Shown here piece after piece: positions 1-13,327 of a DNA stretch of 13,327 bases. The notes beneath the pieces are model-generated. The model saw only the letters and a list, made by a program, of their open reading frames with translations, made no database searches and was not told the DNA's origin. Source of the DNA: a virus. Numbering within the stretch: position 1 is the stretch's first letter; every line of letters begins with the position of its first letter. The translations under genes and the position numbers were made by a program. The stretch lies in the IMG/VR virus record IMGVR_UViG_3300045988_044270, positions 1-13,327 of that record, one strand, 5' to 3'.

Positions 1-119
1 ATTCCTATCAGTTGAAAAATTCGCGGACAAAACTAAACTAACAGGGCATGTACATTACTAATGATTAGTGATATTATATAATCGTAAAGAGGAAGGAAAA
101 CCTCACAAGCCAGAAAGGG
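1..119. repeat. Left inverted terminal repeat (119 bp)
   Basis: I reverse-complemented bases 1-119 base by base and they match 13209-13327 with no mismatch. Identity stops at position 120 (a), which would need t at 13208 where the sequence has c. Confidence 0.97.
49..82 (+). promoter_or_regulatory. Putative inward-facing early promoter inside the left ITR
   Basis: TGTACA (49-54), a 17-nt spacer, then an extended -10 TGaTATTAT (69-77) overlapping a perfect TATAAT (77-82). The purine-rich leader and the SD AAAGGGA (114-120) precede the ATG at 126. Several registers are possible in this AT-rich DNA. Confidence 0.45.
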
Positions 120-125
120 AATGCA

Positions 126-374
126 ATGTTTAGCGAAGTTGTTAAGAACGTTCCGGCTTATAGCAATCTGGCAATGGGGAAAGTTGTGATTGCGAAGAAT
201 TCCGAAACTCACAAGAAATGGGTTTGTGATAAGTTTTTCGCGGATGATTGCGGCAGGATTTACATTAGCACCTTTAAGCGGGAAGGAGAATATGAGCTTG
301 CGGAGGTATACGACATGACGGCAGAAGGGGCGGCAAACGAACTTATTTACATGGCGGCGGTAACAGTATTCTAA
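126..374 (+). CDS. Hypothetical early protein (82 aa), first gene after the left ITR
   Basis: ATG at 126 lies 6 nt after AAAGGGA. It is an uninterrupted ORF with a TAA stop. I recognise no motif. Confidence 0.6.
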   Translation: MFSEVVKNVPAYSNLAMGKVVIAKNSETHKKWVCDKFFADDCGRIYISTFKREGEYELAEVYDMTAEGAANELIYMAAVTVF

Positions 375-422
375 TAAATATAGCTGACCTAACGGCTTGA
401 CGGGGAGAAGGGAAGTTGCAAC

Positions 423-689
423 ATGAATAAATCAATTATCACCCGCGAAGGTTGGCACGTCACACGCGACGGTTTCCGCTACTATGTAAAAGGCGGTAGA
501 ATCATTTATGGAATTGTAGATACTGACGACGGGGCAGGAGTTAGGATGTTTCAATACAAGGTTCGGCGCACAAAGAGCGGGAAAGTTTTTGACTACAAAC
601 GCATTACACCAATTGCCCGTTATTATAATGTAACTCGCTACGTTTGGAGTCCATGTTTTTGTTTGGAGGAGGGAACGAAATGTTGCTAA
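423..689 (+). CDS. Hypothetical early protein (88 aa) with a Cys-rich C-terminus (CFCLEEGTKCC)
   Basis: SD GGGGAGAAGGGAAG lies upstream and the ATG is at 423. The palindrome GTTGCAAC (415-422) abuts the start codon. No family recognised. Confidence 0.6.
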   Translation: MNKSIITREGWHVTRDGFRYYVKGGRIIYGIVDTDDGAGVRMFQYKVRRTKSGKVFDYKRITPIARYYNVTRYVWSPCFCLEEGTKCC

Positions 690-732
690 CGGCAGTCATG
701 CTTATAATCCTTGTTACATGGGGGTTGCAACA

Positions 733-921
733 ATGAATAATAGAGTTCGTAGATATAAGGTTATATCGCTATCCATGTATCCCGAAGATTTGAAGCGACT
801 AAAAGAAATTTGCGACATTAGCAGAATGGACAATCTTTCAAAGACTGCGCGACTCTGTATTAAAACCGTGTACAACGAATTGATGAGAAGGGGGCTTATA
901 AAGAATGGCACGATGGAATAA
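733..921 (+). CDS. Putative ribbon-helix-helix (CopG/Arc/MetJ-like) DNA-binding regulator, 62 aa
   Basis: The sequence RRYKVISLSMYPEDLKRLKEICDISRMDNLSKTARLCIKTVYNEL fits a beta-strand / helix / helix RHH pattern. I prefer ATG 733 over ATG 718 because GGGGGTTGCAACAATGAATAA mirrors the initiation region of the previous gene (GGGAAGTTGCAACATGAATAA). Its position directly upstream of the terminal protein gene matches regulator p4 in phi29 (an analogy in position, not homology). Confidence 0.5.
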   Translation: MNNRVRRYKVISLSMYPEDLKRLKEICDISRMDNLSKTARLCIKTVYNELMRRGLIKNGTME

Positions 922-1606
922 ACGATTCGCGCAAAGTACGGCGCTTGAAAATCGTCCTCTTCAGGCATCCGTGTATGTCGGCACAAAAATTCCGAAGGAA
1001 GGGCTGACACTCAAAGCCATCAGAAAGGAAATGAAAGCGTTAATCGATCTAATGGATAAGCGCTTTAAGGCGGCGAAGAAGAAGGGCATCGAGTATGAAA
1101 GCATTAAACAGTATGAGCGCCATTATTGGGATAAACCCTCCACCGTGCGGACGGTGGAGGAAGGCGTCCGGCAGATTCGTGCCATGTGGAAAGTTGTTAG
1201 CGGGACAAAAACACCAAAACAGTTATTTGTTGCACAACAAAACCAGTGGAAACGCGAATATGAAACACTTTTACAGCGTGGATGGTTTACTGAAGAAACA
1301 TTCACACATGAGGATTTTCTGCAATTCAGAAAATTTTTCGCTGTTTATGCAGATGCGAATAAAGAAGCACAATATTATTATATTCTGCAAGATATTGTTG
1401 ATGTGGCACAGGAAGGGACTACCAGCGTTAAGCGGAAATTCGCCAAATCGGACTGGGATGACTTGCTAAAGCGGTGGGATTACTGGGAGCGTCAAGCGGC
1501 CAAAGCACGGGCGCGATATAAAGAACGTCTTAAAGCTGGTGAATTTGTGAGCGGTTCGACCGTTCGCGCAATGTTTGAAAAAGCCAAAAGAGAAGGGAAG
1601 ATTTAG
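905..1606 (+). CDS. Putative terminal protein (replication primer), 233 aa
   Basis: It sits immediately upstream of, and is translationally coupled to, the protein-primed PolB (stop 1604-1606, pol ATG 1609), as in phi29 gene 3 / gene 2. Size is similar to known phage terminal proteins. The N-terminus is strongly basic (KRFKAAKKKG) and the middle is acidic and aromatic. There is no recognisable sequence motif, so the call rests on synteny and composition. Confidence 0.55.
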   Translation: MARWNKRFAQSTALENRPLQASVYVGTKIPKEGLTLKAIRKEMKALIDLMDKRFKAAKKKGIEYESIKQYERHYWDKPSTVRTVEEGVRQIRAMWKVVSGTKTPKQLFVAQQNQWKREYETLLQRGWFTEETFTHEDFLQFRKFFAVYADANKEAQYYYILQDIVDVAQEGTTSVKRKFAKSDWDDLLKRWDYWERQAAKARARYKERLKAGEFVSGSTVRAMFEKAKREGKI

Positions 1607-1608
1607 GA

Positions 1609-3627
1609 ATGCTCAGCGTATATGATGGAATCCAAAAAATAACGGCGTTAACGCCTGATAATCCACGGGCTAAAATCGTATACGCTAATGCGCTGATGGC
1701 GTTTGACATTGAGACAACTCGCCTTGAAGATGATAACGCTGTAATGTACATTTGGCAATGCGGGCTATGTGTGGAGGGAGAATACTATATCACATATGGG
1801 AGAACGTGGGAAGAATGGACTGCATTACAGGAAGCAATAAATGCGCGACTGTGCGGAATTACAATAATTTGTTTTGTTCATAATCTTTCCTATGAGTTCC
1901 AATTCCTTGCGGGGCTTTACGAATTTTCCGATGTTAAGTGCCTTAAATCCCGAAAAATACTGTCCGCGACTTGTGGAAGAATCGAATATCGCTGCTCCTA
2001 TATTTGGACAAATAAAACGCTTTCAAAATTTCTAAAGGAAATGAATGTCCAACACATGAAGAAGTCAGGCGCTGAATTTGACTATTCTAAAGTCCGCTAT
2101 CCGTGGACAGAACTTTCAGAAGATGAGATTGAATATTGTCAAAATGACGTTATCGGACTACTTGAAGCTGCCGAAAAGAAGATTTCGCAAGATGGCGACA
2201 CTCTCTATACAGTTCCGCGTACGTCTACGGGCTACGTGCGCCGGGATGCAAAACAAGCGTTAAGCCAAACGCCACTTGGAGCGCTTAAACCCACAGAAGA
2301 AATTTACATAAAACTTCGCAAGGCGTTCAGAGGGGGGAACACGCACGCGAACCGGTATTTCGTCGGCAAGGTTTTGACGGGCGTGCAATCGGTCGACCGT
2401 TCATCAAGCTACCCTGATGTTATGCTAAATAACAAGTTTCCTATGAAATCATTCAAGAAATGCCCTGATGGAATAGCAACTATTAGGAGGGCGTTTTCAT
2501 CCGGGCTTGCAATTCTTTGTACGATGAGCATAACAGGCGCTACCCTGCGCAATCCGTTGTGGGGGTGCCCCTACATCCCCGTTAGCAAGTGCCAAATGCT
2601 TATAGATCCTGTGGAAGATAACGGACGAGTTCTTGAAGCGGATGCGCTGACGATTGAAGTAACAGAAGTAGATATGCAGATAATTCTTGAAGAATATGAT
2701 GGCGAATTTGATTTTACAGATATATACACGGCAGAGAAGGACTATTTGCCAAAACCGTTTACGGATTGTATAAAACGCTATTATACAAACAAAACATCAC
2801 TTAAAGGAATCGCCGGGAGTGAATATGAATACATGAAAAGTAAGAATTTGTTAAATAGCTTGTACGGTATGACAGCCACAGACCCCGGCAAAGATGATAT
2901 TATATTCGACGGTGTAGAATACATTCAGCAGGAAACAGACGTAATCAAAAATATCAATAAATCATTCCTCCCATATCAATGGGGCGTATGGGTTACCGCG
3001 TACGCAAGGCTTGAGTTGGAAGAAATGATAAAGATTGCGGGGAATAATTTTGTTTATGGCGATACGGATAGCTGTAAATATATAAAATCAGAATCAATTA
3101 GTTATGAATCATATAATAACAGATGCAAAACAGCATCCCTTGAGCATGGGGCGTGTGCCGTAGACCCCCACGGAACATTGCATTATATGGGCGTTGCAGA
3201 AACAGAGGGTGAATATTTCCAGTTTTTAACATGGGGGGCGAAAAAATATGCTTCACGGGATGAAAAGGGGCATATAGACATAACTATTGCAGGTGTACGC
3301 AAAAAATCCAGTAAAAACGCTGCTGGTGATATTGTGGAGTGGGGCGGTGATGATGAACTGGAAGAAGCAGGAGGACTTGCAAAATTCGCGCCCGGTTTCG
3401 TTTTCCGAAAAGCCGGAGGGCTTGAAAGCGTTTACAACGACCACGTACACAAGAAAATTAGCGTTGACGGGCATGAATTAACGATAACCCGAAACGTATG
3501 CTTACGCCCATCAACCTATGCTGTAGGAATTACTTATAAATACGCAGATTTGCTTGAGACATTGCAGAACACTTATATAAGCGTTGACGCAGACCGAAAT
3601 CTGTGCTATAATCTTATCAGGCGATAA
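1609..3627 (+). CDS. Family B DNA polymerase, protein-primed (phi29 gp2-like), 672 aa
   Basis: Exo I is FDIET (nt 1702-1716). Exo II is HNLSYEF (1879-1899). Exo III is YCQNDVIGL. Motif A is VDRSSSYPD, motif B is KNLLNSLYG, motif C is YGDTDS (3055-3072), and KKY is present. SD AGAAGGGAAG precedes the ATG. Confidence 0.95.
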   Translation: MLSVYDGIQKITALTPDNPRAKIVYANALMAFDIETTRLEDDNAVMYIWQCGLCVEGEYYITYGRTWEEWTALQEAINARLCGITIICFVHNLSYEFQFLAGLYEFSDVKCLKSRKILSATCGRIEYRCSYIWTNKTLSKFLKEMNVQHMKKSGAEFDYSKVRYPWTELSEDEIEYCQNDVIGLLEAAEKKISQDGDTLYTVPRTSTGYVRRDAKQALSQTPLGALKPTEEIYIKLRKAFRGGNTHANRYFVGKVLTGVQSVDRSSSYPDVMLNNKFPMKSFKKCPDGIATIRRAFSSGLAILCTMSITGATLRNPLWGCPYIPVSKCQMLIDPVEDNGRVLEADALTIEVTEVDMQIILEEYDGEFDFTDIYTAEKDYLPKPFTDCIKRYYTNKTSLKGIAGSEYEYMKSKNLLNSLYGMTATDPGKDDIIFDGVEYIQQETDVIKNINKSFLPYQWGVWVTAYARLELEEMIKIAGNNFVYGDTDSCKYIKSESISYESYNNRCKTASLEHGACAVDPHGTLHYMGVAETEGEYFQFLTWGAKKYASRDEKGHIDITIAGVRKKSSKNAAGDIVEWGGDDELEEAGGLAKFAPGFVFRKAGGLESVYNDHVHKKISVDGHELTITRNVCLRPSTYAVGITYKYADLLETLQNTYISVDADRNLCYNLIRR

Positions 3628-3658
3628 CCGCCGAACAAATATTTAGGAGGGCTTCATC

Positions 3659-4006
3659 ATGAACACGAAGACTAATCAGAGCATTTCCCCGGCGGACCTT
3701 TACAAGCTTACGCTTTCTCGCGAAGGGCGCACAATGTCGGAGCTGATGACGAAAACCGTTCGCGTCGATGCATGGGCGGTGGCTGAAACAGTAGATAGTA
3801 ACGGGGAGTTTAAGCCGCGTTGCGGAATCATTGTTGATGGTGTCGCCTACATCACGAATAGCAGAGCGTTCAGCGATCGGCTTCTCGCTATTGTTGAGTA
3901 TCTCAGAAAGGCGGACATGGACGATGCAGGGTTTAACTTGCAGATTACGCAGATTCGGAGCAAGAATAGTCACAACTATACATCTTGCGAATTGATTCTC
4001 GATTGA
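3659..4006 (+). CDS. Small early protein (115 aa), possibly a phi29 p5-like ssDNA-binding protein
   Basis: Strong SD AGGAGGG 7 nt upstream. The C-terminal half (DGVAYITNSRAFSDRLLAIVEYL...FNLQITQIRSKNSHNYTSCELIL) resembles my recollection of the phi29 SSB pattern (DGSLYSAISK...FKVKVVQGTSSKGNVFFSLQLSL). It is the last gene of the replication operon. The function is tentative. Confidence 0.4.
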   Translation: MNTKTNQSISPADLYKLTLSREGRTMSELMTKTVRVDAWAVAETVDSNGEFKPRCGIIVDGVAYITNSRAFSDRLLAIVEYLRKADMDDAGFNLQITQIRSKNSHNYTSCELILD

Positions 4007-4011
4007 TGCAT

Positions 4012-4044
4012 AAAAGGCAGGGTCATCGCCCTGCCTTTTATTTT
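4012..4044 (+). terminator. Rho-independent terminator ending the left early operon
   Basis: Stem GGCAGGG (4016-4022) pairs with CCCTGCC (4029-4035), with a 6-nt loop. It is followed by TTTTATTTT and preceded by AAAA. Confidence 0.75.
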
Positions 4045-4056
4045 AGGAGGGGGCGT

Positions 4057-5076
4057 ATGAATAACCTATTTTTGGAAAATGGCTATGTTGATATGTCGCG
4101 AATCATAGAACAAAAATATACATTCATTTTGATGACGGGTGCAAGAGGTACTGGGAAAACATACGGCGCGCTTAAATATGTTATTGAACATAAAATGAAA
4201 TTTATCTATATGAGACGAACGAAACTACAAGCGGATGTTATTAGCGCGCCTGAAATGTCACCTTTTGCGCCCGTTTGCGATGATATGTCCTTGTCTCTCG
4301 AAATGGATAAGGTTTCCAAAGAAGCAACAGCTGTATATATCAACGAGGAAAGCAGCCCTGCCGGGTATGTTATGGCGCTGTCCGGTGTATCAAATATTCG
4401 GGGGTTTTCAGCTCATGACATTGAAATTATTATATTTGATGAATTTATCCCTGAATCGCATGAGCGCAGAATCAAAAATGAAGGGGATGCATTTTTTAAC
4501 GCATATGAAACAATAAATAGAAATAGGGAGCTACAAGGGAAGCCCCCTGTGAAGTGTTTATGCCTTGCCAATAGCAACAGCATTGTAAATCCGATTTTTC
4601 AAATTTTGGGGCTTATTACGATTGCTTATAAGATGGAAGAGAATGATATGCAGGAATATAAAGATGGCGAACGCGGATTATATCTGATAAACATGCGCAA
4701 TAGTCCCATAAGCCGGAGGAAGGGAGAAACCGCGCTTTATCGGCTTCTAAAGGATAATAAAATAAAAGACATGTCGCTTGAAAACCGATTTTTGGATAAA
4801 CCAGTATTACAAACCATGAGCGCGAACCTCAAAGAGTATACGCCTATCGTAACGTGTGGGGAAATCACAGTATATCGGCACAAGAGCAATCGAACGTATT
4901 ATATTAGCCCGCACGGGCAGGGAACGCGCCCGATATACAGCACAACGGAAAACGATTGTTTACGTTTCCGCACGCTTTATCGGTATCTGATGCAGGAATA
5001 TATTGCCCGAAAAATTTATTGCGAATCTCCGGCTTGCGAAATTGTTTTCTGTCAATACTTCGGGATAGTTAAATAA
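4057..5076 (+). CDS. DNA packaging (encapsidation) ATPase, phi29 gp16-like, 339 aa
   Basis: Walker A is GARGTGKT (nt 4138-4161; phi29 gp16 has GARGIGKS at the same N-terminal position). Walker B is IIIFDEF. Size is close to gp16. SD AGGAGGGGG (4045-4053) precedes ATG 4057. The longer ORF from 3985 would run through the terminator hairpin. Confidence 0.85.
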   Translation: MNNLFLENGYVDMSRIIEQKYTFILMTGARGTGKTYGALKYVIEHKMKFIYMRRTKLQADVISAPEMSPFAPVCDDMSLSLEMDKVSKEATAVYINEESSPAGYVMALSGVSNIRGFSAHDIEIIIFDEFIPESHERRIKNEGDAFFNAYETINRNRELQGKPPVKCLCLANSNSIVNPIFQILGLITIAYKMEENDMQEYKDGERGLYLINMRNSPISRRKGETALYRLLKDNKIKDMSLENRFLDKPVLQTMSANLKEYTPIVTCGEITVYRHKSNRTYYISPHGQGTRPIYSTTENDCLRFRTLYRYLMQEYIARKIYCESPACEIVFCQYFGIVK

Positions 5077-5079
5077 GTC

Positions 5080-5108
5080 TTGACAAAATTTAAAAATTAT
5101 GATACATT
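5080..5108 (+). promoter_or_regulatory. Near-consensus sigma-A type promoter
   Basis: TTGACA (5080-5085), a 17-nt spacer, then an extended -10 TGaTACATT (5100-5108). It starts 4 nt after the ATPase stop codon. The predicted TSS is around 5113-5116. Confidence 0.65.
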
Positions 5109-5112
5109 GATT

Positions 5113-5198
5113 ATGGCAATAGGGAAGCTCGAACGACAACCCCGGAAGGGTGAGCATGGCATAGTCGTATGCCTCGACCCCTATTGCCATTTTGTTTT
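5113..5198 (+). ncRNA. Candidate small structured RNA with paired 5' and 3' ends and its own terminator. It may be a pRNA-like packaging RNA, or alternatively a leader/attenuator of the late operon.
   Basis: P1 is 12 perfect bp, 5113-5124 (AUGGCAAUAGGG) with 5179-5190 (CCCUAUUGCCAU). P2 pairs 5127-5130 with 5152-5155 and encloses a CCC/GGG hairpin capped by a GGAA tetraloop (5141-5150) plus a 9-10 nt bulge. P3 pairs 5158-5163 with 5168-5173 and has loop GUCG. A U-tract UUUGUUUU lies at 5191-5198. The predicted TSS coincides with the 5' strand of P1. Confidence 0.5.
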
Positions 5199-5217
5199 CG
5201 GGGGGACAGGAGGGGAT

Positions 5218-5412
5218 ATGGAAATTTCCGATATTGTTACGCTAATCACAAACGTAGGGTTTCCGATTGCTTGTACTTGCGCGCTTTTCTATTTCTGGAA
5301 TAAGGAGCGGGAACAGCACCGCGTAGAAACAGCGGAATTAAAGGATGCTATCAATAATAATACGATGGTAATGCAGCGCCTCATTGATAAGTTGGGCGGT
5401 GATGGAAATTGA
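5218..5412 (+). CDS. YvrJ-family small membrane protein, holin candidate (64 aa)
   Basis: SD GGAGGGG lies 4 nt before ATG 5218. The sequence ITNVGFPIACTCALFYFW matches the YvrJ signature (N-x-GFPIA followed by a single TM helix), and a charged coiled C-tail follows. It is immediately upstream of, and overlaps, the endolysin gene. Confidence 0.6.
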   Translation: MEISDIVTLITNVGFPIACTCALFYFWNKEREQHRVETAELKDAINNNTMVMQRLIDKLGGDGN

Positions 5413-5897
5413 TTGCGGCAGAATGGGCTGAAAAAATCAGCGCAAACCGTGTAGATTTAATCGGTATTCCGTATACATCCCTTGATTGTCAGGCGTTCAT
5501 CGAATTTTGCCTGAAAAAATATGCGGGAATCTCCAAAAACTGGCGCGGCTCGAATGATATGTGGCGCAATGCTGTGTATGACAAATCTGACAATTTTGAT
5601 AACATTGATGTAGGCGAATGGGTATTTACTATCAAACATGATGGTAATGAACCAAAGCGCTATACCGATGGTGTGAATGCCGCTCATGTTGGAATTTACA
5701 TTGGCAACGGTGAAGTAATTCATTCGACGACGGGAGGTGTTCAGATGGATAAAATTACTAATCGGAAGCGGTGGACGCACCACGCGAAGGCAAATTGTCT
5801 ATACTATGCGGCTGTGCAGGATGCGAACGAACTATATTCAAACCTATACGGTGAACTTGTGGCACTTGTAAATAAATATGGAGGTAACAAACAATGA
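5409..5897 (+). CDS. NlpC/P60-family cell-wall endopeptidase (endolysin), 162 aa
   Basis: A catalytic Cys lies in SLDCQAF (C27), and His residues lie in AAHVGIYIGNGEVIHS (H93, H105). No in-frame ATG precedes the catalytic Cys, so the start is probably TTG 5409, overlapping the upstream TGA (TTGA) and preceded by GGTGA. The start codon is uncertain. Confidence 0.8.
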   Translation: MIAAEWAEKISANRVDLIGIPYTSLDCQAFIEFCLKKYAGISKNWRGSNDMWRNAVYDKSDNFDNIDVGEWVFTIKHDGNEPKRYTDGVNAAHVGIYIGNGEVIHSTTGGVQMDKITNRKRWTHHAKANCLYYAAVQDANELYSNLYGELVALVNKYGGNKQ

Positions 5898-6226
5898 ATG
5901 TATCTGACATTTTGACGCTGGCAAAAGCTGGATTTACGGCAGAGCAAATCGGGAAGCTGATGACCGTAGATGCACCGGCACCGGTGCCGGCACAGGCACA
6001 GGCGCCGGCACAGGCACAGGAACCGGCACAGGCACAGGCACAGGCGCCGGCACCGGTGCCGGCACAGGCACCGGATAATACACAGGCGCAGTTTGAGAAG
6101 GTTTTCCAGCAGATTGCGAACCTTACGGGAATTGTGCAGAGGGGAAACATCGCAAACGCGCATCAGCCGGATTCACAGCCGCTGACGGCGGAGGATGTTC
6201 TTTCGGAAATCATCCGCCCGAACTAA
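5894..6226 (+). CDS. Putative scaffolding protein (110 aa) with a PAQ-rich low-complexity core
   Basis: It sits directly upstream of the MCP gene, as gp7 does for gp8 in phi29. The N-terminus is helical (ILTLAKAGFTAEQIGKLM), the linker is APAPVPAQAQAPAQAQEPAQAQAQAPAPVPAQAP, and the C-terminus is helical. ATGA overlaps the lysin stop. SD GGAGG is present. Confidence 0.55.
   Translation: MNVSDILTLAKAGFTAEQIGKLMTVDAPAPVPAQAQAPAQAQEPAQAQAQAPAPVPAQAPDNTQAQFEKVFQQIANLTGIVQRGNIANAHQPDSQPLTAEDVLSEIIRPN
5972..6074 (+). repeat. Hexanucleotide-type low-complexity tract (CCGGCA/CAGGCA units) inside the scaffold gene
   Basis: The 28-nt unit GCACCGGCACCGGTGCCGGCACAGGCAC (5972-5999) recurs at 6043-6070 with one mismatch. 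CAGGCA-type repeats lie between the two copies. Each unit contains the palindrome GGCACCGGTGCC. Confidence 0.85.
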
Positions 6227-6241
6227 TGGAGGTGTTAAAAT

Positions 6242-7417
6242 ATGGCTAATACGCTTAGTATTGATAAAATTAGTACCCTGCTTAAAGCAGTTCTCAAGGA
6301 TGCAACCGGGCAGGATACAGCCGCGCTTGACACTAAGCAGTTGTTGACGCTCGGACAGAAGGCGTTGAAAACAGGGGCTGACCCTGTAATGAACGCAATT
6401 TCGCAGATGCTTTCGCGAACAATTTTTTCCAGCCGCCCATACAAAGCGAAGTTTGAGGGTATGCGGATTCCCGGCGACCAGTGGGGAAACTGGGTGAGGA
6501 AAATTAAGACGATTGACGACCCGGATGACCTGACCGACAACCCTTACTGTGATTTGACCGACGGGCAGAGCGTCGACCAATACACGATTCACAAGCCGAA
6601 GGTTGCACAGTTTAACTTCTACGGGCAGCAAAGCTACGAATACGAAAAAACGATTTTTGAAACGCAGTTAAACACGGCGTTTAATTCGGCAGAAGATTTC
6701 GGTGCATTTATTTCGATGATTTTGACGAATATGAATAACAAAATCGAAAAGACGCACGAAGAAACCGCGCGCGCAACCGTAGCTGGGTTTGCCGCTGGCA
6801 AGATTGCACAGAACGCCGATGTTATTCATCTGCTGACGGAGTACAACACCGTTACAGGGCTTGAGTTGACTGCGACAACCGTTATGCAACCCGCAAATTA
6901 TAAAGCGTTTACGCAGTGGGCTTTTTCCCGACTTGCTAACCTGTCCGATATGCTGACAGAATATTCTAGTCTTTATCAGACAAATAGTGCAGATGGCGTA
7001 TTCCTCCAGCACAGCCCGAAGTCCGCGCAGCGTGTTTATATTAACTCGATGTTTATGCATCAAACTAACATGATGGCGCTTGCGGACACGTTCCATGATA
7101 ATTTCCTTCGCATGGCGGGTGATGTTGAATATGTCAATTACTGGCAGATTATGACCGACCCACAGAAAATCCATGTAGTAAAGCCGCAGTATCTCGCGGC
7201 TGACGGCACTATTGCAACGGCGACGGCTGACGTAAATCAAGGCAACGTACTTGGTATTATCTGTGACCGTGACGCTTTCGGGTACAGCCCGATTCTAACG
7301 CGGCAGAGGGTGACGCCTCCGAACGCGAAGGGCGAATATTACAACATTTTTTGGAAGTACAACGAGCGTCATGCTATTGACTTTACCGAAAAGGGTATTG
7401 TTATTCTTATGGATTAA
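6242..7417 (+). CDS. Major capsid protein, phi29 gp8-like (HK97 fold), 391 aa
   Basis: SD GGAGGTG is present. The segments VMNAISQMLSRTIFSSRPYKAKF and QLNTAFNSAEDFGAFISMILTNMNN parallel the phi29 gp8 segments (FITSLVDRIGLVV...LKKF and [25 protein letters not shown]) as I recall them. It follows the scaffold gene and is followed by a strong terminator. Confidence 0.8.
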   Translation: MANTLSIDKISTLLKAVLKDATGQDTAALDTKQLLTLGQKALKTGADPVMNAISQMLSRTIFSSRPYKAKFEGMRIPGDQWGNWVRKIKTIDDPDDLTDNPYCDLTDGQSVDQYTIHKPKVAQFNFYGQQSYEYEKTIFETQLNTAFNSAEDFGAFISMILTNMNNKIEKTHEETARATVAGFAAGKIAQNADVIHLLTEYNTVTGLELTATTVMQPANYKAFTQWAFSRLANLSDMLTEYSSLYQTNSADGVFLQHSPKSAQRVYINSMFMHQTNMMALADTFHDNFLRMAGDVEYVNYWQIMTDPQKIHVVKPQYLAADGTIATATADVNQGNVLGIICDRDAFGYSPILTRQRVTPPNAKGEYYNIFWKYNERHAIDFTEKGIVILMD

Positions 7418-7423
7418 CTTAAT

Positions 7424-7481
7424 AGTAATAGCCCTGTATTCGCCAAGTTAATAACATAGCAATACAGGGCTATTACTTTTG
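7424..7481 (+). terminator. Strong intrinsic terminator after the capsid gene
   Basis: A perfect 17-bp stem pairs 7424-7440 (AGTAATAGCCCTGTATT) with 7461-7477 (AATACAGGGCTATTACT). The loop is 20 nt and TTTT follows. Confidence 0.8.
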
Positions 7482-7549
7482 CGGCGATTCTGTGCGATTT
7501 CCAAAATGTGTTGTTAAATAACTTTACCAGAAAATACAGGAGGTGTGAC

Positions 7550-8293
7550 ATGGCAGGAGATAGGCATAGGATGCCCGGTAGCAACATAGTCCCTGCTGCG
7601 GACAGCACAGCAACACGCTATCCCCATTGGTACAAGCCTTTTCGGTTGCCGCAGGAGTGGTATTATAGTGTATACGACGACCCATATTTTGACTATCAAG
7701 ACCACGAGACAGCGAGCGAAACAAACGGCTTACTTATTGCAACCGGGCTGTATAAAAACGGATGGAAAGTCCCCCAAATAGCGGCGATGTTGGGGAACAT
7801 GTGCCGCGAATCTACACTCAATCCTGCCATATGGCAGGGCGGGAACGCTCCGAGCCCAGACCCAAATAATTATAAGCAGAACACCGAAAAGAAATACGGT
7901 TTTGGGCTTGTCCAATGGACAGGAGCAGATAAATATATAGATTGGGCGCTCGAAATATTTGGAACAAATGGGGCATATGCAGGGCTTGATTGTTGGTATA
8001 ACGGCAGCATCCAGATAGCGCGCATCATGTATGAGGTCGAGCATAATTACCAGTGGGAGGGCGGCACAATATACCCGGATTTCCAAGATTTTTACTTTTC
8101 GGACAGCACAGATATTGAGCAGTTGACAAAGAGTTTTTGTCTTTGCTATGAGCGACCTGCAATTACGGACTGGGAAGCAACAAGTAAATATCGTATTCAG
8201 TGGGCGAATTATTGGTACAATAAATTACAAAAAAACAATCTGAATAGCTTGCCCGTTTGGTTTATCTGCAAAGCGGCTAATAAATGGAGGTGA
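7550..8293 (+). CDS. Virion/tail-associated lysozyme-like peptidoglycan hydrolase (phage tail lysozyme domain), 247 aa
   Basis: SD AGGAGGTG lies 6 nt before ATG 7550. The sequence IAAMLGNMCRESTLNP...YGFGLVQWTG matches the phage tail lysozyme signature (LGN-x-x-x-ES-x-x-NP ... G-x-G-L-x-QWT). It lies within the tail gene block. Confidence 0.7.
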   Translation: MAGDRHRMPGSNIVPAADSTATRYPHWYKPFRLPQEWYYSVYDDPYFDYQDHETASETNGLLIATGLYKNGWKVPQIAAMLGNMCRESTLNPAIWQGGNAPSPDPNNYKQNTEKKYGFGLVQWTGADKYIDWALEIFGTNGAYAGLDCWYNGSIQIARIMYEVEHNYQWEGGTIYPDFQDFYFSDSTDIEQLTKSFCLCYERPAITDWEATSKYRIQWANYWYNKLQKNNLNSLPVWFICKAANKWR

Positions 8294-8297
8294 AATA

Positions 8298-9749
8298 ATG
8301 GAAGCATGGTTTACAAATGTCGGGAAACGCAGAAATTCAACCTACACCCCATCGGTAACATCTTATGAAGATAGCCTAAAGTTTGATGTTGTGCTGAAGG
8401 ATAATACAAATGTGCAAAATCCTGTTATTAGCCTGATTTGGTCAAACAACCGTTATCCGCCACAAAACCTTAATTATGTATTTATTCCATTGTTCGGGCG
8501 CTCATATTTCGTGGAAAATGTCACGTTCGAGCGTAACAGGGTATTTTTTACACTAAGTACCGATGTTTTAGGGTCGTTTTGGGGGTTGCTGAAGAAGTCG
8601 ACACAATACGTTATTAGGTCAGCAAGCAAGTATAATTCGCGGATTATAGATACTTCTTTGCCAATTTTGGCAAAAGGGGAAAAGCAAACCTACGAAATAG
8701 ATAACACTGGATATGTATCAGTTATGTCTGAAGGATGGTATGTTGTAGGTATCATCGGCGCGGAAGGTAACGCAGTTGGTGCTGTATCGTACTATGTGAT
8801 GACACAAACACAATTTACATATTTTAGAAGCAAGTTACTGACTGATTATAGTTATATGGGCGTAAATGTCGCAGAAATTTCGGCGGAACTGTTAAAAGCT
8901 ATTGTAAATCCTTTCCAATACATCGTATCTTGTAGATGGTATCCGATAAAGCCTCCGACATTAGACACTTTAACAACTGTTAAAGTTTCAGGTTGGGAAT
9001 TGGCGGGCACATCCGCGCGCCTGTTATCTTCATCAACCGTTACAACAAAATCTTTTTACTGCGGCACTGGATATATTAAACAGGATGAATGGAAAAATTG
9101 CTATCCGTATAGGCAAATAGCAATCAATCTTGCTCCGTGGGGGTATTTTCAAGTCGACACAACATCGCTAACAAAATATGGCGAAAATATAACAATCAGG
9201 GCATATATAGATTTTACAAGCGGAGGTTCAATCGCTTATTATTTGTGCGGAGGGGAGGCTATCAAATATCATGTGTTAGGAGTTCGAGAATCACAATTTG
9301 GAGTTGATATCCAATTAGCACAAACTGGATACGGGCAAGATGTTATTTCAATAGCAGGAAGTGTCGCGGCCGGAGTTGGCGGCGTCGGTGCTGCGATTTT
9401 GGGGAATGCAAAAGCGCTAAATAGTGTAACTGATAGTATTAATAATATAGCAACCTCAATGTCAGATGGTTTTGGCTCCGTATCCTCATTTTCAGCAAAC
9501 ACCTCTATTGCAAAATACGCAATGCCGCAATATGTAGATGTTGTATATACATATACTGCCGAACAAAATGCCAAAATAAATGGGCGTCCTCTTTGCGCAA
9601 CAGTTAAATTGGAGACCTTATCAGGATATACGCTTATAAATAATCCCGATACTTCGGCAGTAACCAATTGTTACGGAGAAGAACGCGATGAACTAACACG
9701 CTATATGCAATCAGGATTTTATATAGAGGAGGCCGAAACCGGTGAATAA
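8298..9749 (+). CDS. Tail knob / distal tail tube protein, phi29 gp9-like, 483 aa
   Basis: The N-terminal segment NYVFIPLFGRSYFVENVTFERNRVFFTLSTDVLGSFW parallels phi29 gp9 YIMFQN..KWFYAFVTELEFKN..VHFEIDVLQTW. A Gly/Ala-rich hydrophobic segment (IAGSVAAGVGGVGAAILG) parallels the gp9 loop GGGISAGASAAGGSALG. The gene order knob then connector matches phi29. Confidence 0.7.
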   Translation: MEAWFTNVGKRRNSTYTPSVTSYEDSLKFDVVLKDNTNVQNPVISLIWSNNRYPPQNLNYVFIPLFGRSYFVENVTFERNRVFFTLSTDVLGSFWGLLKKSTQYVIRSASKYNSRIIDTSLPILAKGEKQTYEIDNTGYVSVMSEGWYVVGIIGAEGNAVGAVSYYVMTQTQFTYFRSKLLTDYSYMGVNVAEISAELLKAIVNPFQYIVSCRWYPIKPPTLDTLTTVKVSGWELAGTSARLLSSSTVTTKSFYCGTGYIKQDEWKNCYPYRQIAINLAPWGYFQVDTTSLTKYGENITIRAYIDFTSGGSIAYYLCGGEAIKYHVLGVRESQFGVDIQLAQTGYGQDVISIAGSVAAGVGGVGAAILGNAKALNSVTDSINNIATSMSDGFGSVSSFSANTSIAKYAMPQYVDVVYTYTAEQNAKINGRPLCATVKLETLSGYTLINNPDTSAVTNCYGEERDELTRYMQSGFYIEEAETGE

Positions 9750-10665
9750 TCCCCCCTTCGATTACAATCGTATAAATGCATACGAATCCAGCATTTCTCC
9801 CTCTACTTGCCATACCAAAAATACGGCACTTTTCCAATACTATCAACGCTATTTATTCCAGAAACTAACAAGCCAATTCAAATGGAGCTTGCCCGAAGGT
9901 TGGAGCGATACATATTTTCTCGGTTGCTTGTACGCATGGGGAAGCGTGGCGATTTTTAACAGCAAGCGCTACGGTGTAATTCCGCAGGCTGGCGCATTGT
10001 ATGGATACAATGTTTACTATCAACCAACAACTGTTTTGATTGCAAACCCGCTTCTTCCTCCGATGCGCTTGCAAATCGACAAGGATTGCGTTCTTTTCCG
10101 GTTACAACGCGATTATCACGGCGCGCTAGACATTGTTAATTATTACGCAGACTTGCTTGCCACCTCTTGCGAATCGCTTGCCATGAACATAATGAATTCT
10201 AAACTTTCCTATGTGTTCGCGTGCAGTTCAAAAAATGCCGCACAAACTGGCAAAGAATTGATGGACAGGGTAACATCTGGAGAATTGGCTGTATGGGTGG
10301 ATAAAGCCCTTTTTAACGATGACGGTTCCCCCTCGTGGGCACCATTCGCGCAAAACGTAGGACAAAACTATATCGCGGACAGAATTATTTCCAACATGAG
10401 GCAAATTGAAGCAGAATTTGACACCCGCGTAGGGATACCGACTTGTAACACCGACAAAAAAGAACGGTTGATTACAGCCGAAGCGGAACGGAACGACGTT
10501 GAAACAGACGCAATCGTTGCGCAATGGTTCGACACCATCCAGGAGTGCATCCGCAACGTGCATACTGCGTTCGGTGTGGCAATCACTTGTGAGCGACGTT
10601 ATCCGATTGAGCATAACAAAAATGGAGGTGACAAGATTGAGCGTGATGCTGGCGACAATGTATAA
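9742..10665 (+). CDS. Head-tail connector (portal, upper collar), phi29 gp10-like, 307 aa
   Basis: The start is GTG 9742, 9 nt after GAGGAGG, overlapping the knob stop. YLFQKLTSQFKWSLPEG...GSVAIF parallels gp10 YLQSLAYQLFEWENLPP...GYVGFY. NTDKKERLITAEAERNDVE parallels [21 protein letters not shown]. Confidence 0.8.
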   Translation: MNNPPFDYNRINAYESSISPSTCHTKNTALFQYYQRYLFQKLTSQFKWSLPEGWSDTYFLGCLYAWGSVAIFNSKRYGVIPQAGALYGYNVYYQPTTVLIANPLLPPMRLQIDKDCVLFRLQRDYHGALDIVNYYADLLATSCESLAMNIMNSKLSYVFACSSKNAAQTGKELMDRVTSGELAVWVDKALFNDDGSPSWAPFAQNVGQNYIADRIISNMRQIEAEFDTRVGIPTCNTDKKERLITAEAERNDVETDAIVAQWFDTIQECIRNVHTAFGVAITCERRYPIEHNKNGGDKIERDAGDNV

Positions 10666-11230
10666 TTTTGACCCGTCCATCTTTGACGGCGTGGAATTTC
10701 CTTCTAATATATCGGTGCAAGATTTCGTCGATTCGCTATTGATGCAGTGTGGAGAAATGCCCGTTCTGTACTCGTCCCCTCCCCTGCTTAAATCGCTAAT
10801 TCGTGTATGGACGAAAATTTCGCAATATAGTTGGGTGCATCTTGCCGCAACACTAACGGCGGAATATAATCCGATAGAAAATTATGACAGAATTGAAGAA
10901 TGGGAGGACAGCACCACAAACACTTCGCACTATACAAATTCTGCAAACAATACTTCCAGCGGCTCTACAAAGGAACAGGTATACGGTTACAACGATTTGC
11001 AAACCCCCTCTGACAATAGCGCAAGCACCAGCGCAAGCACAAGCGCGGATACAAGCGATAGTGCCGGGACAGGCACAAGCGCAGGGACTCGAAAAGGGCG
11101 GGCGCACGGTAACATCGGTGTAACCACGACGCAGAATATGCTTGAAAGTGAACGGAAGGTTGCAATGTTCAACTTCTATGATGCAGTTATTCAGGATTTT
11201 AAGAAGCGGTTTTTAATTTGGGTGTATTAA
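10637..11230 (+). CDS. Virion structural protein of about 197 aa. It may be a lower-collar or head-tail adaptor analogue, judged by position.
   Basis: It lies between the connector and tail fiber genes, where gp11 lies in phi29. SD GGAGGTGA is at 10624-10631. Candidate starts are TTG 10637, GTG 10643, ATG 10646 and ATG 10658. Motifs EYNPIENYDR and GNIGVTTTQNMLESE are present, with a Ser/Thr/Ala-rich linker. The function rests only on synteny. Confidence 0.4.
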   Translation: MSVMLATMYNFDPSIFDGVEFPSNISVQDFVDSLLMQCGEMPVLYSSPPLLKSLIRVWTKISQYSWVHLAATLTAEYNPIENYDRIEEWEDSTTNTSHYTNSANNTSSGSTKEQVYGYNDLQTPSDNSASTSASTSADTSDSAGTGTSAGTRKGRAHGNIGVTTTQNMLESERKVAMFNFYDAVIQDFKKRFLIWVY

Positions 11231-11247
11231 TAGGAGGTGTAAAATAT

Positions 11248-12702
11248 ATGGGTATTTGGGAACAATTCCCGTTTACGAATTTCCACGAACAGAATCTTGA
11301 TTGGGCTTATAATTCAATCAAAGAACTTGATGGAAGAGTTGACACGCTGGAAAAGAGCGGCAATGTAAGCAAAGAATATGTTGACGAACAAGATGCTGCG
11401 CTTGACGAAAAAATCAGCGGCGAACGTTCCGCGCGAACAACCGCAGACCAAGCACTCCAAAATCAGATTACACCGCATACGGCAAGTATTAATGGTCTAA
11501 ACGAGCGAATGGTGGAAGCTGAAAAAAATATTGGCGTAAAGCCTTCTGTGCCTAATTTCAGCAGCATTTGGAGCACAATAGGCGAATACGGTGCTACACA
11601 GGCAATCGGCAGTAAGTTGCTTTCAGTTCAGACGGCGAGCAAAGAAAATCTTCGTTCTATTGCGGGAACCGATGGCATGTATGATATTACCAAGGGCACA
11701 ATTCAGGCGCGCCTTGACATCATAGAGGAAGCCCTTAAACCCGGTTCTCTGGTAAAACTTAACGGCGAATATCAAATTGCTATTTCTCCCGGAACTGCAA
11801 GAGGGACTGAATTCACCCCCAAAAAAGAAATCACACCGTTTGATTTCGCGATTTGTGCGCGCGAATCATCTGTTGCGCATACAGATGGAGATAGTAATAA
11901 CGCATTTTTGATTGTTAAGCCTATAAAAACTACAACCGAAAATAAATATAATAATTTTGTAGTTGTAGCAGACAGCCCCGGAGAAACGACAACATTTAAT
12001 ATGGTAGTTCACGTTTGGACTTTTGCAGTTGTGGCGGGCAGTTCTGGCGGGGAGCAGTATGCAACGGTATCCTATGTAGATGAAAAAACTGGTGAGCTGG
12101 CGACAGAACTTGGAAACGTAGAAGCGGATGTGCAGGATGCATACACCAAAGCGGAGACGGCAGACAACAATGCCGCAATTGCCAAGTCAACCGCAACAAC
12201 GGCTGCTTCTACTGCTTCTTCCGCACTGGAAAAAATCGGCACGAGACCTGCAGAATCGAAATATAACACCCTCTGGGATACAATCGGTACTTGGTCGGAA
12301 AATGTCCCGATGGCTCTCAGAATCAATCCTGCCTATAATTGGAGCCGGAATAATCGTTCCGCTATCAATGGTACTTCGGACTACCCAACAGACAAGGGTT
12401 CTATCAATTCCCGGCTAACCGATTTGGAAACAGCTATAGCCAAATTCCAGAATATGCCAAAAATTGCGAGGGGACACGTGCTTGCATACCAAGACCAAGA
12501 CACCATTATTGATTATCAGTCGGCGGGATTTACCGAAATTCCGACCGTGGTTGCGACTTATGCAAACACTGGGGCTGTTGCAGATAGTGTAACACGCAGT
12601 CAGTTAATTTTCGCCAAAACTACAAGTTCAGCAAAAATCAGGCTTTCCGGTACATCGACGCATGAGCAGTTCGCCGTAGACTGGATTGCAGTTGGTGTGT
12701 AA
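11248..12702 (+). CDS. Tail fiber / receptor-binding protein, 484 aa, built from two tandem paralogous modules
   Basis: SD AGGAGGTG lies 8 nt before ATG 11248. The N-terminal motif FHEQNLDW is typical of phage fibers. Coiled-coil heptads are present. The C-terminus (...IRLSGTSTHEQFAVDWIAVGV) resembles the gp53-like / lectin-like fiber tip pattern that ends in W-I-A-x-G. Confidence 0.7.
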   Translation: MGIWEQFPFTNFHEQNLDWAYNSIKELDGRVDTLEKSGNVSKEYVDEQDAALDEKISGERSARTTADQALQNQITPHTASINGLNERMVEAEKNIGVKPSVPNFSSIWSTIGEYGATQAIGSKLLSVQTASKENLRSIAGTDGMYDITKGTIQARLDIIEEALKPGSLVKLNGEYQIAISPGTARGTEFTPKKEITPFDFAICARESSVAHTDGDSNNAFLIVKPIKTTTENKYNNFVVVADSPGETTTFNMVVHVWTFAVVAGSSGGEQYATVSYVDEKTGELATELGNVEADVQDAYTKAETADNNAAIAKSTATTAASTASSALEKIGTRPAESKYNTLWDTIGTWSENVPMALRINPAYNWSRNNRSAINGTSDYPTDKGSINSRLTDLETAIAKFQNMPKIARGHVLAYQDQDTIIDYQSAGFTEIPTVVATYANTGAVADSVTRSQLIFAKTTSSAKIRLSGTSTHEQFAVDWIAVGV

Positions 12703-12706
12703 CAAT

Positions 12707-12734
12707 AAAGGGAGGGCATTGCCCTCCCTTTATT
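12707..12734. terminator. Bidirectional intrinsic terminator between the convergent late (+) and right early (-) operons
   Basis: Stem AAAGGGAGGG (12707-12716) pairs with CCCTCCCTTT (12722-12731), with loop CATTG. T-runs follow on both strands. The stop codon of the - strand gene lies in the stem. Confidence 0.75.
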
Positions 12735-12978
12735 CACCCCATGCTGTGAGATGCGCGCCCCCACGAAAACGAGTTGCAACCCAGCGATACCCACCGGCAC
12801 GGCGGCGGCGATAGAGCTTCGCGCACTGCGTACGCTTAGAAATGCTTGTGGCGATTTCCATCGACATCATTGCGACTGTGAGCGAATAAAATTCAAACCG
12901 TTTGATACCGCTTTCGTCATTTCTTTCGATTTCTCTTCCATCGGCATCGTACCGAATAAGCACATAATTAGCGTTCAT
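12730..12978 (-). CDS. Hypothetical right-end early protein (82 aa) with an Arg-rich C-terminal half
   Basis: On the - strand, SD AAGGGAGGAAG lies 5 nt before ATG 12978. It overlaps the upstream gene by 11 nt and ends in the bidirectional terminator. No family recognised. Confidence 0.6.
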   Translation of the reverse strand: MNANYVLIRYDADGREIERNDESGIKRFEFYSLTVAMMSMEIATSISKRTQCAKLYRRRRAGGYRWVATRFRGGAHLTAWGE

Positions 12979-13198
12979 CTGGCTTCCTCCCTTTATATAA
13001 TCTCTTTACACGGATTTCAACCTGTTCCCAGCCGTTCGGATTGCTACTGCTTTTATTCGATAAAGCAACCGTTGTGTCGAGGTACTCACGACGGATTCTT
13101 ACCACAGAATCTTCCTCCATAAAATAGCGATAGCGGGCAGTATCATAAATGCTGTCGTGGTTCAGCTGGTTAATAGCACGGCGTCCGAGATATGCCAT
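12968..13198 (-). CDS. Hypothetical right-end early protein (76 aa), first gene after the right ITR
   Basis: The - strand ATG at 13198 is preceded by AAAGGGGAA, the inner edge of the ITR. It is an uninterrupted ORF with a TAA stop at 12968-12970. No family recognised. Confidence 0.6.
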   Translation of the reverse strand: MAYLGRRAINQLNHDSIYDTARYRYFMEEDSVVRIRREYLDTTVALSNKSSSNPNGWEQVEIRVKRLYKGRKPDER

Positions 13199-13208
13199 AT
13201 CATAATTC

Positions 13209-13327
13209 CCCTTTCTGGCTTGTGAGGTTTTCCTTCCTCTTTACGATTATATAATATCACTAATCATTAGTAATGTACATGCCCTGTTAGTTTAGTTTTG
13301 TCCGCGAATTTTTCAACTGATAGGAAT
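13209..13327. repeat. Right inverted terminal repeat (119 bp)
   Basis: Exact reverse complement of 1-119. Confidence 0.97.
13246..13279 (-). promoter_or_regulatory. Mirror copy of the ITR promoter, driving the right-end operon on the - strand
   Basis: Same sequence as 49-82 because it lies inside the ITR. It points inward toward the - strand ATG at 13198, whose SD (AAAGGGG) is again the inner end of the ITR. Confidence 0.45.

Follow-up and report, generated by a model that had tools for sequence, protein, structure and literature searches.

The stretch of DNA analysed here, in the following called the window, comprises positions 1 to 13,327 of the IMG/VR virus record IMGVR_UViG_3300045988_044270 and has a length of 13,327 nucleotides (nt). 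It contains about 18 open reading frames (ORFs), is approx. 95% coding and has a GC content of 44%. The plus strand carries a nearly continuous series of ORFs from position 126 to 12702, and the minus strand holds only two small ORFs between 12730 and 13198. Inverted terminal repeats (ITRs) are found at both ends, and a small structured RNA lies between the genes of a packaging ATPase and a holin-like protein (Table 1). This arrangement agrees with the original prediction, made from the sequence, of about 17 genes with all replication and late genes on one strand. The window most likely represents the nearly complete genome of an uncultured phi29-like gut podophage, which would replicate by protein priming, possess longer ITRs than those present in the assembly and encode a small RNA after the ATPase gene.

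Table 1. Positions of genes, repeats, regulatory sites and RNA elements in the window (aa, amino acids).
Feature	Position	Strand	Evidence or comment
Left ITR as assembled	1..119	+	Probably inner part of an approx. 225-260-nt ITR; homology to positions 105-223 of the relative L142
Three small early ORFs	126-374, 423-689, 718-921	+	Function not assigned
Terminal-protein candidate, 233 aa, all-alpha	905..1606	+	Position directly upstream of PolB
Protein-primed-type family B DNA polymerase (PolB)	1609..3627	+	PF03175 3e-15; phrog_1907 7e-54
p5-like single-stranded DNA-binding protein	3659..4006	+	Transitive, through homologues
gp16-type DNA packaging ATPase	4057..5076	+	PF05894 4.5e-21; phrog_2150 8e-41; start codon refined
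Small-RNA promoter	5080..5108	+	TTGACA, 17 nt, TG-n-TACATT; likewise upstream in most relatives
pRNA-like structured RNA, approx. 78 nt	5113..5190	+
RNA helix A	5113-5124 with 5179-5190	+
RNA helix C	5127-5131 with 5151-5155	+
RNA CE loop, 9 nt, 5' side of helix C	5132-5140	+	CGAC at 5134-5137
RNA E stem-loop	5141-5150	+	CCC-GGAA-GGG, loop GGAA
RNA D stem-loop	5158-5173	+	Loop GUCG at 5164-5167
U-run 3' of RNA helix A	to approx. 5200	+
Holin-like small membrane protein, 64 aa	5218..5412	+	phrog_4898 holin 1.5e-4; start codon according to relatives
NlpC/P60 peptidoglycan endopeptidase, probably endolysin	5409..5897	+	PF00877 1e-7
Scaffold candidate, PAQAQ repeat	5894..6226	+	Position before capsid gene; predicted from phi29 gene order 7-8
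phi29-type major capsid protein	6242..7417	+	PF25622 9.5e-20; 2432 homologues
Terminator-like hairpin, 20-bp stem and T-run	7421..7484	+	After capsid gene
Tail-associated lysozyme, cf. phi29 gp13	7550..8293	+	PF18013 2.8e-25
Tail knob, gp9-like	8298..9749	+	Structure comparison (see text)
Head-tail connector (upper collar), gp10-like	9742..10665	+	PF05352 1.4e-17; phrog_2038 5e-32
Lower collar, gp11-like	10637..11230	+	Profile: phi29 gp11 (6qz9) 3e-37; P68 lower collar (6iac) 1.5e-6
Tail fibre or receptor-binding protein	11248..12702	+	phi29 gp12 position
Bidirectional hairpin between converging transcription units	12707..12731	.	Sequence
Two small early ORFs	12968-13198, 12730-12978	-	Read inward from right ITR
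Right ITR as assembled	13209..13327	-	Mirror image of 1-119; predicted to drive the two minus-strand early ORFs

Replication module, relatives and host

Comparison with the Bacillus phage phi29 (Salasmaviridae) revealed a common genome plan. An ORF in the position of the terminal protein (TP), a PolB of the protein-primed type and a single-stranded DNA-binding protein follow each other in the same order, as do scaffold, major capsid protein (MCP), knob, connector, lower collar and finally fibre or appendage. Both genomes also have ITRs and encode a gp16 ATPase, a tail-associated lysozyme and a small RNA whose topology is that of domain I of the packaging RNA (pRNA). In contrast to phi29, the genome is small (approx. 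13.5 kb versus 19.3 kb), the ITRs of the window group measure hundreds of nt instead of 6 nt, replication and late genes share one strand, and the ATPase is encoded upstream of the structural proteins. Homologues of the head fibre, p4 and p6 were not detected in the window, which for the head fibre is in line with the original prediction. Protein identities to phi29 are very low, with only 10% for the knob.

The polymerase is the best recognisable component of the replication module. Its motifs Exo I, Exo III, Pol A, B, C and KxY are invariant, and the only PDB match of the PolB profile was the phi29 DNA polymerase (4e-15); a single-sequence phmmer search against PDB returned nothing useful. 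Together with the PF03175 match, these results confirm the predicted protein-primed PolB. Directly upstream of PolB, an ORF of 185-304 aa was present in 20 of 20 relatives, and the corresponding 233-aa protein of the window is the probable primer. Pfam, PDB (single-sequence phmmer and profile) and Foldseek searches revealed no similarity of this protein to known TPs, and Pfam scans of all 21 ORFs in the TP position yielded only noise. Its AlphaFold2 model (predicted local distance difference test, pLDDT, 71) found no PDB match in Foldseek at E ≤2. The missing sequence and fold match weighs against the assignment, as does the weak hhalign alignment (67%) to its counterparts upstream of PolB in distant relatives. 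TPs were described as not recognisable outside the Salasmaviridae (Evseev et al., PMC11476376).

Protein priming is well supported by the polymerase type and the ITRs. The linear DNA would be copied from both ends by PolB, as deduced from its family. Hence, the window probably derives from a linear, protein-primed phi29-like phage genome that is not integrated. Of the TP-capped linear genome proposed originally, the linear and non-integrated state and the probable protein priming are sustained by PolB, the ITRs and the stand-alone relatives described below; the TP candidate holds its conserved place upstream of PolB, and its identity as a TP is suggested by gene order. As a weak lead, Y157/Y158 of the candidate fall into an alignment column in which 19 relatives have Ser, whereas the window and the relative L014 have Tyr. 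The column might mark the priming residue; it is unreliably aligned at this divergence, and the hhalign alignment ends before it.

The p5-like protein was assigned transitively: PF17427 matched 16 of its 19 homologues (best 1e-9) but not the protein of the window. Just upstream of its gene, inside the 3' end of PolB, lies the best sigma-70-like site of the window (3584-3612; TTGACG, 17 nt, TG-n-TATAAT; 11 of 12 positions), which may be a middle promoter. A weak match to RAGATH-12 (RF03149) inside the PolB gene (window 2792-2869, 31 bits; L142 2818-2895, 29 bits; gathering threshold 75) probably occurs by chance.

The closest sequences are L142 and its relatives, including GenBank MT839743. They form a genus-level lineage with the window, with approx. 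90% nucleotide identity, 88-96% identity of PolB and the same gene order and inner ITR, and differ by full ITRs of 226-258 nt, other early ORFs at the left end and lengths of 13.6-14.2 kb. Small genomes are also found among cultured relatives, namely Vibrio phage K58 g2 (10.4 kb), Salmonella phages Astrid and astrithr (11.6-11.7 kb), Pectobacterium phage DU_PP_III (11.5 kb), Acinetobacter phage Phanie (11.9 kb) and Amedibacillus phages AD70P2 and AD70P3 (12.2-12.3 kb). AD70P2 (12.3 kb, listed under Guelinviridae) has the module order and the RNA architecture of the window in a likewise small phi29-like genome; the two differ in sequence (PolB 32%, MCP 27% identical) and GC content (27% versus 44% in the window). 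Smaller protein-primed podophages of Gram-negative hosts share 33-36% (PolB) and 22-24% (MCP) identity with the window. In these phages the tail knob is split into two proteins (PMC11476376), in contrast to the single gp9-like knob protein of the window.

The search for capsid homologues returned 2432 sequences; the longest contigs listed have approx. 14 kb, and no relative resides in a contig longer than approx. 15 kb. More than 2000 phi29-like entries, among them several clusters of 12-15 kb from human metagenomes, were catalogued by Evseev et al. in 2024, and their phi29-like clusters of 11-14 kb display the module order of the window (PMC11476376). The view that the genome is unusually small and near the lower limit for tailed phages is contradicted by the cultured relatives of 10.4-12.3 kb and by the large catalogued group of 11-15 kb (PMC11476376). 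The window is a new member of this known group of small phi29-like phages, in which its size is ordinary. The genome as such is of little impact, as phi29-like phages of 10-15 kb have already been cultured and catalogued.

Metagenomic contigs in general leave room for the explanation that the ITRs mark the boundaries of a prophage or plasmid, or that they arose by fold-back during assembly; nothing specific to the window points in this direction. In GTDB genomes, 32 relatives were detected, every one of them a stand-alone contig of at most 14.9 kb from a metagenome-assembled genome (MAG) and lacking host flanks, which speaks for a free phage genome. Profile searches of the window proteins revealed no integrase or partition genes, gene order and ITR agree across independent assemblies, and sequencing adapters were assembled onto the ends of relatives. 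We consider a prophage, plasmid or chimera highly improbable and rejected these readings on account of the stand-alone relatives, the lack of integrase and partition genes and the adapters at the ends.

With regard to the host, strong GGAGG-type ribosome binding sites precede most genes, and most MAG bins that contain relatives belong to Clostridia. Both observations point to a Firmicute, probably of the Clostridia type. The MAG labels of individual GTDB contigs (L163-L193) comprise Clostridia, Lachnospiraceae, Alphaproteobacteria, Bacteroidales, Spirochaetia and Kiritimatiellae; such labels likely reflect binning contamination and cannot be relied on to identify the host. Contigs of this phage family have been binned into many bacterial MAGs and contribute to MAG contamination.

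Terminal repeats and contig ends

Bases 1-119 and 13209-13327 form an inverted repeat that is 100% complementary and flush with both ends of the window. The left arm contains an inward-reading early promoter with a TG-extended -10 region (TATAAT, 77-82) and the ribosome binding site of the first gene. Each end would accordingly carry one inward-reading promoter in the retained inner ITR. The perfect repeats at both ends were thus described correctly in the original prediction as far as the contig is concerned. Comparison with relatives argues against their being the genome termini.

The closest complete relative, IMGVR_UViG_3300045988_106820 (L142, also L001 and L084; 14,020 nt; PolB 96% identical), has a perfect and flush ITR of 226 nt. 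Window positions 1-131 align with positions 105-235 of L142 at 95% identity. ITRs of other close relatives extend over 258 nt (L105), 237 nt (L128) and approx. 247 nt (L114), and termini of close relatives read (GGG)TATTCCTATAATAAAAA. It is the inner part, approx. 120 nt, of these 226-258-nt repeats that corresponds to the window ITR. In the alignment, nine of nine longer-ended relatives extend outward beyond the column of window base 1, and wherever relatives provide more sequence the matching site is internal, 104-184 nt away from the contig end. All aligned relatives share the inner ITR boundary, which lies at either end at the ribosome binding site of the first gene.

The length of the assembled repeat suggests how this truncation may have come about. 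The value 119 is included in the default k list of MEGAHIT, and flush ITR stubs within this phage family track the assembler. A contig with a SPAdes 'NODE' name (L143) ends in stubs of 55 nt, two Logan contigs (L144, L161) in stubs of 30-31 nt, and two contigs with k141 in their names (L182, L187) in stubs of 141 nt; for Logan we assume a k of 31. Contigs without any clue to the assembler have stubs of 55 nt (L132), 59 nt (L094), 99 nt (L163) and 141 nt (L181). The near relative k119_72757 starts 2 nt inside the window start, in step with its predicted ITR boundary (GGGGAAT), which ends at base 119. In L014, a 118-nt arm is found at one end, whereas the opposite end runs 137 nt further, an asymmetry that in our analysis can only be read as truncation at the same place. 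A de Bruijn assembler stalls at an inverted repeat longer than k and therefore emits the unique part with k repeat bases per side. Indeed, a toy de Bruijn graph of L142 resolved into two unitigs, one consisting of the ITR and the other of the unique part with exactly k (or k-1) ITR bases on either side. For the window, a k of 119 would generate the observed 119-nt stubs from real ITRs of approx. 225-260 nt.

Several points weigh against a truncation. Window bases 1-8 (ATTCCTAT) are identical to the terminal 8-mer of the relatives L105 and L142, and L142 carries, besides its terminal copy (5-12), an internal copy (105-112) exactly at the position of the window start; a genuine shorter end is for this reason conceivable. 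Moreover, one k141 contig has a stub of approx. 82 nt instead of 141 nt. The assembler used for the window is not on record, nor are its exact proteins (four were looked up), and k = 119 was taken from the ITR length. The shared 8-mer and the perfect, flush repeat would fit a complete genome with a true ITR of 119 nt, from a lineage that lost the outer 105 nt or so and initiates at the internal ATTCCTAT. Such a lineage seems unlikely to us: 119 is a MEGAHIT k, stubs of 55, 30-31 and 141 nt in relatives likewise equal an assembler k (the unlabelled contigs have 59 and 99 nt), the k119-named contig is shifted in register with its boundary, L014 is truncated on one side only, all nine longer-ended relatives have the site of window base 1 inside their sequence, and the toy graph recreated a flush stub of length k. 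A literature search on ITR assembly artefacts revealed nothing relevant.

It is therefore very likely that the window lacks approx. 105-140 nt at each end, the true termini among them. The full genome would have approx. 13.5-13.6 kb, and the true replication origins would be missing if the ITR is a stub of length k. The claim of a complete genome is not supported, given that the ITR has the length of an assembler k and corresponds to no more than the inner half of the repeats (226-258 nt) in close relatives. Generally, a flush and perfect ITR with the length of an assembler k (55, 119, 141 and possibly 59 or 99 nt) should not count as proof of a complete linear genome.

Illumina adapter sequence (TruSeq and Nextera) was assembled onto the ends of L015 (1-27) and L020 (1-30), implying that physical DNA ends were sequenced in these relatives. 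Adapter in some IMG/VR contigs of this family is a contaminant and at the same time marks where the DNA physically ended. The termini of several contigs (L142, L114, L110, L126) open with GGG, which in L015 directly follows the adapter and might represent a real terminal reiteration for sliding-back or a library artefact. The ATTCCTAT copies within the ITRs of relatives have loosely similar, A-rich flanks and may be a duplicated origin-like element or a coincidence.

A small structured RNA downstream of the ATPase gene

Refinement of start codons left a non-coding gap of 141 nt (5077-5217) between the ATPase and the holin-like genes. The gap is 99% identical to L142, compared with approx. 90% genome-wide, and is more conserved than its coding flanks. 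Downstream of a promoter, it contains a small RNA built around a three-way junction that is closed by helix A. Next come helix C with its CE loop, the E stem-loop and the D hairpin, and a U-run adjoins the 3' side of helix A (Table 1).

Two rounds of searches with a covariance model identified 22 full-length copies of this RNA in relatives, all on the gene strand. Of the 26 base pairs in the helices, 25 vary on both sides. The alignment displayed 89.7% paired cells versus 55.7% in shuffled controls (0 of 500 reached the observed value) and a covariation score of 0.82 versus 0.10-0.17 with pairing partners slid, the pairing figures being somewhat inflated because the alignment was fitted to the model. 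In addition, the CE and D loops are complementary in 17 of 17 distinct combinations, for instance CGAC/GUCG, CACC/GGUG, GGGC/GCCC, GUGC/GCAC, AGACG/CGUCU and GCACA/UGUGC. Cognate loops pair over runs of 3-5 nt with a mean of 3.9, compared with 2.3 for non-cognate loops, and none of 20000 permutations reached this mean.

In 19 of 21 cases the RNA starts between 1 nt before and 41 nt after the stop codon of the ATPase gene, usually preceded by the same promoter. A structure descriptor, which demanded loop pairing of at least 4 nt, detected the architecture in 15 of 30 further relatives and in none of 30 reverse-complement controls. One of these matches resides in the cultured Amedibacillus phage AD70P2, in a 123-nt gap after the packaging gene, with the loop pair UAUCC/GGAUA. 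Copies map, for example, to L014 5347-5424, L015 5365-5442, L155 5589-5663 and L195 (AD70P2) approx. 5846-5917, and to about 30 other loci. The covariance model gave no match in unrelated viral contigs totalling 378 kb, and in its second round it did not reach phi29 pRNA, HM2 or AD70P2, the latter of which was reached by the hand-written descriptor. Existence and structure of the RNA are well supported by these results.

The architecture resembles that of the phi29 pRNA (RF00044), in which helix A likewise closes a three-way junction and helix C with a 9-nt loop on the 5' side is followed by E and then by the D hairpin. A further likeness is the complementarity of the CE and D loops, over 3-5 nt in the window family (pRNA features according to PMC5066667). 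When folded, the authentic 120-nt phi29 pRNA displayed an identical succession of elements, and its 5'-side loop again comprised 9 nt. The RNA of the window differs by its length (approx. 78 nt versus 120-174 nt), by an unbulged helix A of 12 bp instead of approx. 25 bp in phi29, by the lack of domain II and by its genomic location after the ATPase gene.

We favour, with moderate confidence, that the 78-nt RNA is a true, minimal packaging RNA, which would occur widely among the small phi29-like phages that infect gut Firmicutes, AD70P2 being one of them. A gp16-type ATPase would then drive DNA packaging by acting on the gp10 connector, and copies of the RNA would most likely join by loop-loop pairing into a ring on the prohead. 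Two features speak against this role: the short and unbulged helix A lacks the ATPase-binding bulge of phi29, and Rfam RF00044 yielded no match at E ≤1 in the window and L142 nor at E ≤10 in the segment 5095-5215.

These same features, short length, lack of a long bulged A helix and escape from RF00044, would fit a cis-acting element (terminator, attenuator or leader) of the lysis and structural operon, or a small regulatory RNA whose loops form an intramolecular pseudoknot. The position downstream of the ATPase gene and ahead of the late genes agrees with such a function, and helix A together with the adjoining U-run resembles a terminator in the window clade. On the other hand, order and size of the elements match domain I of phi29 pRNA, including the 9-nt loop on the 5' side and a hairpin loop with covarying complementarity. 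A strong promoter that belongs to the RNA lies directly at helix A, the U-run is missing in L014 and L015, and among the loci examined the RNA was confined to phages that encode both a gp16-type ATPase and a gp10 connector, where it adjoins the ATPase gene. A purely regulatory role appears to us the less likely explanation, though one of some weight.

Two reviews restrict the known occurrence of pRNA to phi29 and its relatives among the Bacillus phages (PMC11476376, PMC5066667). The previously undescribed RNA is a candidate for a new pRNA variant. If it functions in packaging, pRNA-dependent packaging extends beyond phi29 and its Bacillus relatives, and the pRNA core is reduced to a three-way junction with two interlocking loops, without a long A helix. 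A family of short, covarying pRNA-like RNAs in distant relatives would help to define the minimal functional core and bear on the question whether pRNA is ancestral to packaging motors of the gp16 type. It would also supply RNA nanotechnology with many new pairs of three-way junctions and kissing loops. The role of the RNA can be tested in a cultured phage, AD70P2.

Structural and lysis genes

The genes for scaffold, MCP, knob, connector, collar and fibre follow each other in the order of phi29 genes 7 to 12. PDB profile searches returned no match for the fibre or the knob, and the latter was resolved by structure. Its AlphaFold2 model (pLDDT 79) matched phi29 gp9 in Foldseek with an E-value of 3e-12, a probability of 1.0 and a template modelling score of approx. 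0.5; every Foldseek match below E 0.001 was phi29 gp9. The only low-confidence segment of the model, residues 342-399, is rich in Gly and Ala and hydrophobic, and in our view recalls the membrane-inserting loop of phi29 gp9. The fibre proteins have a conserved N-terminus (QFPFTNFHExNLDW) and interchangeable C-termini, and one homologue carries a pectate-lyase beta-helix. The absence of a clear appendage or pre-neck protein, as originally stated, applies to direct sequence recognition; the knob, the lower collar and a fibre of modular build could be identified.

ARAGORN predicted no tRNA in the window. Imperfect repeats of 6-12 nt (GCACAGGCACCGG and similar) occur at 5945-6098 and 11028-11097. 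They encode low-complexity runs of the PAQAQ type in the scaffold candidate and a similar Ser/Thr/Ala-rich run in the lower collar.

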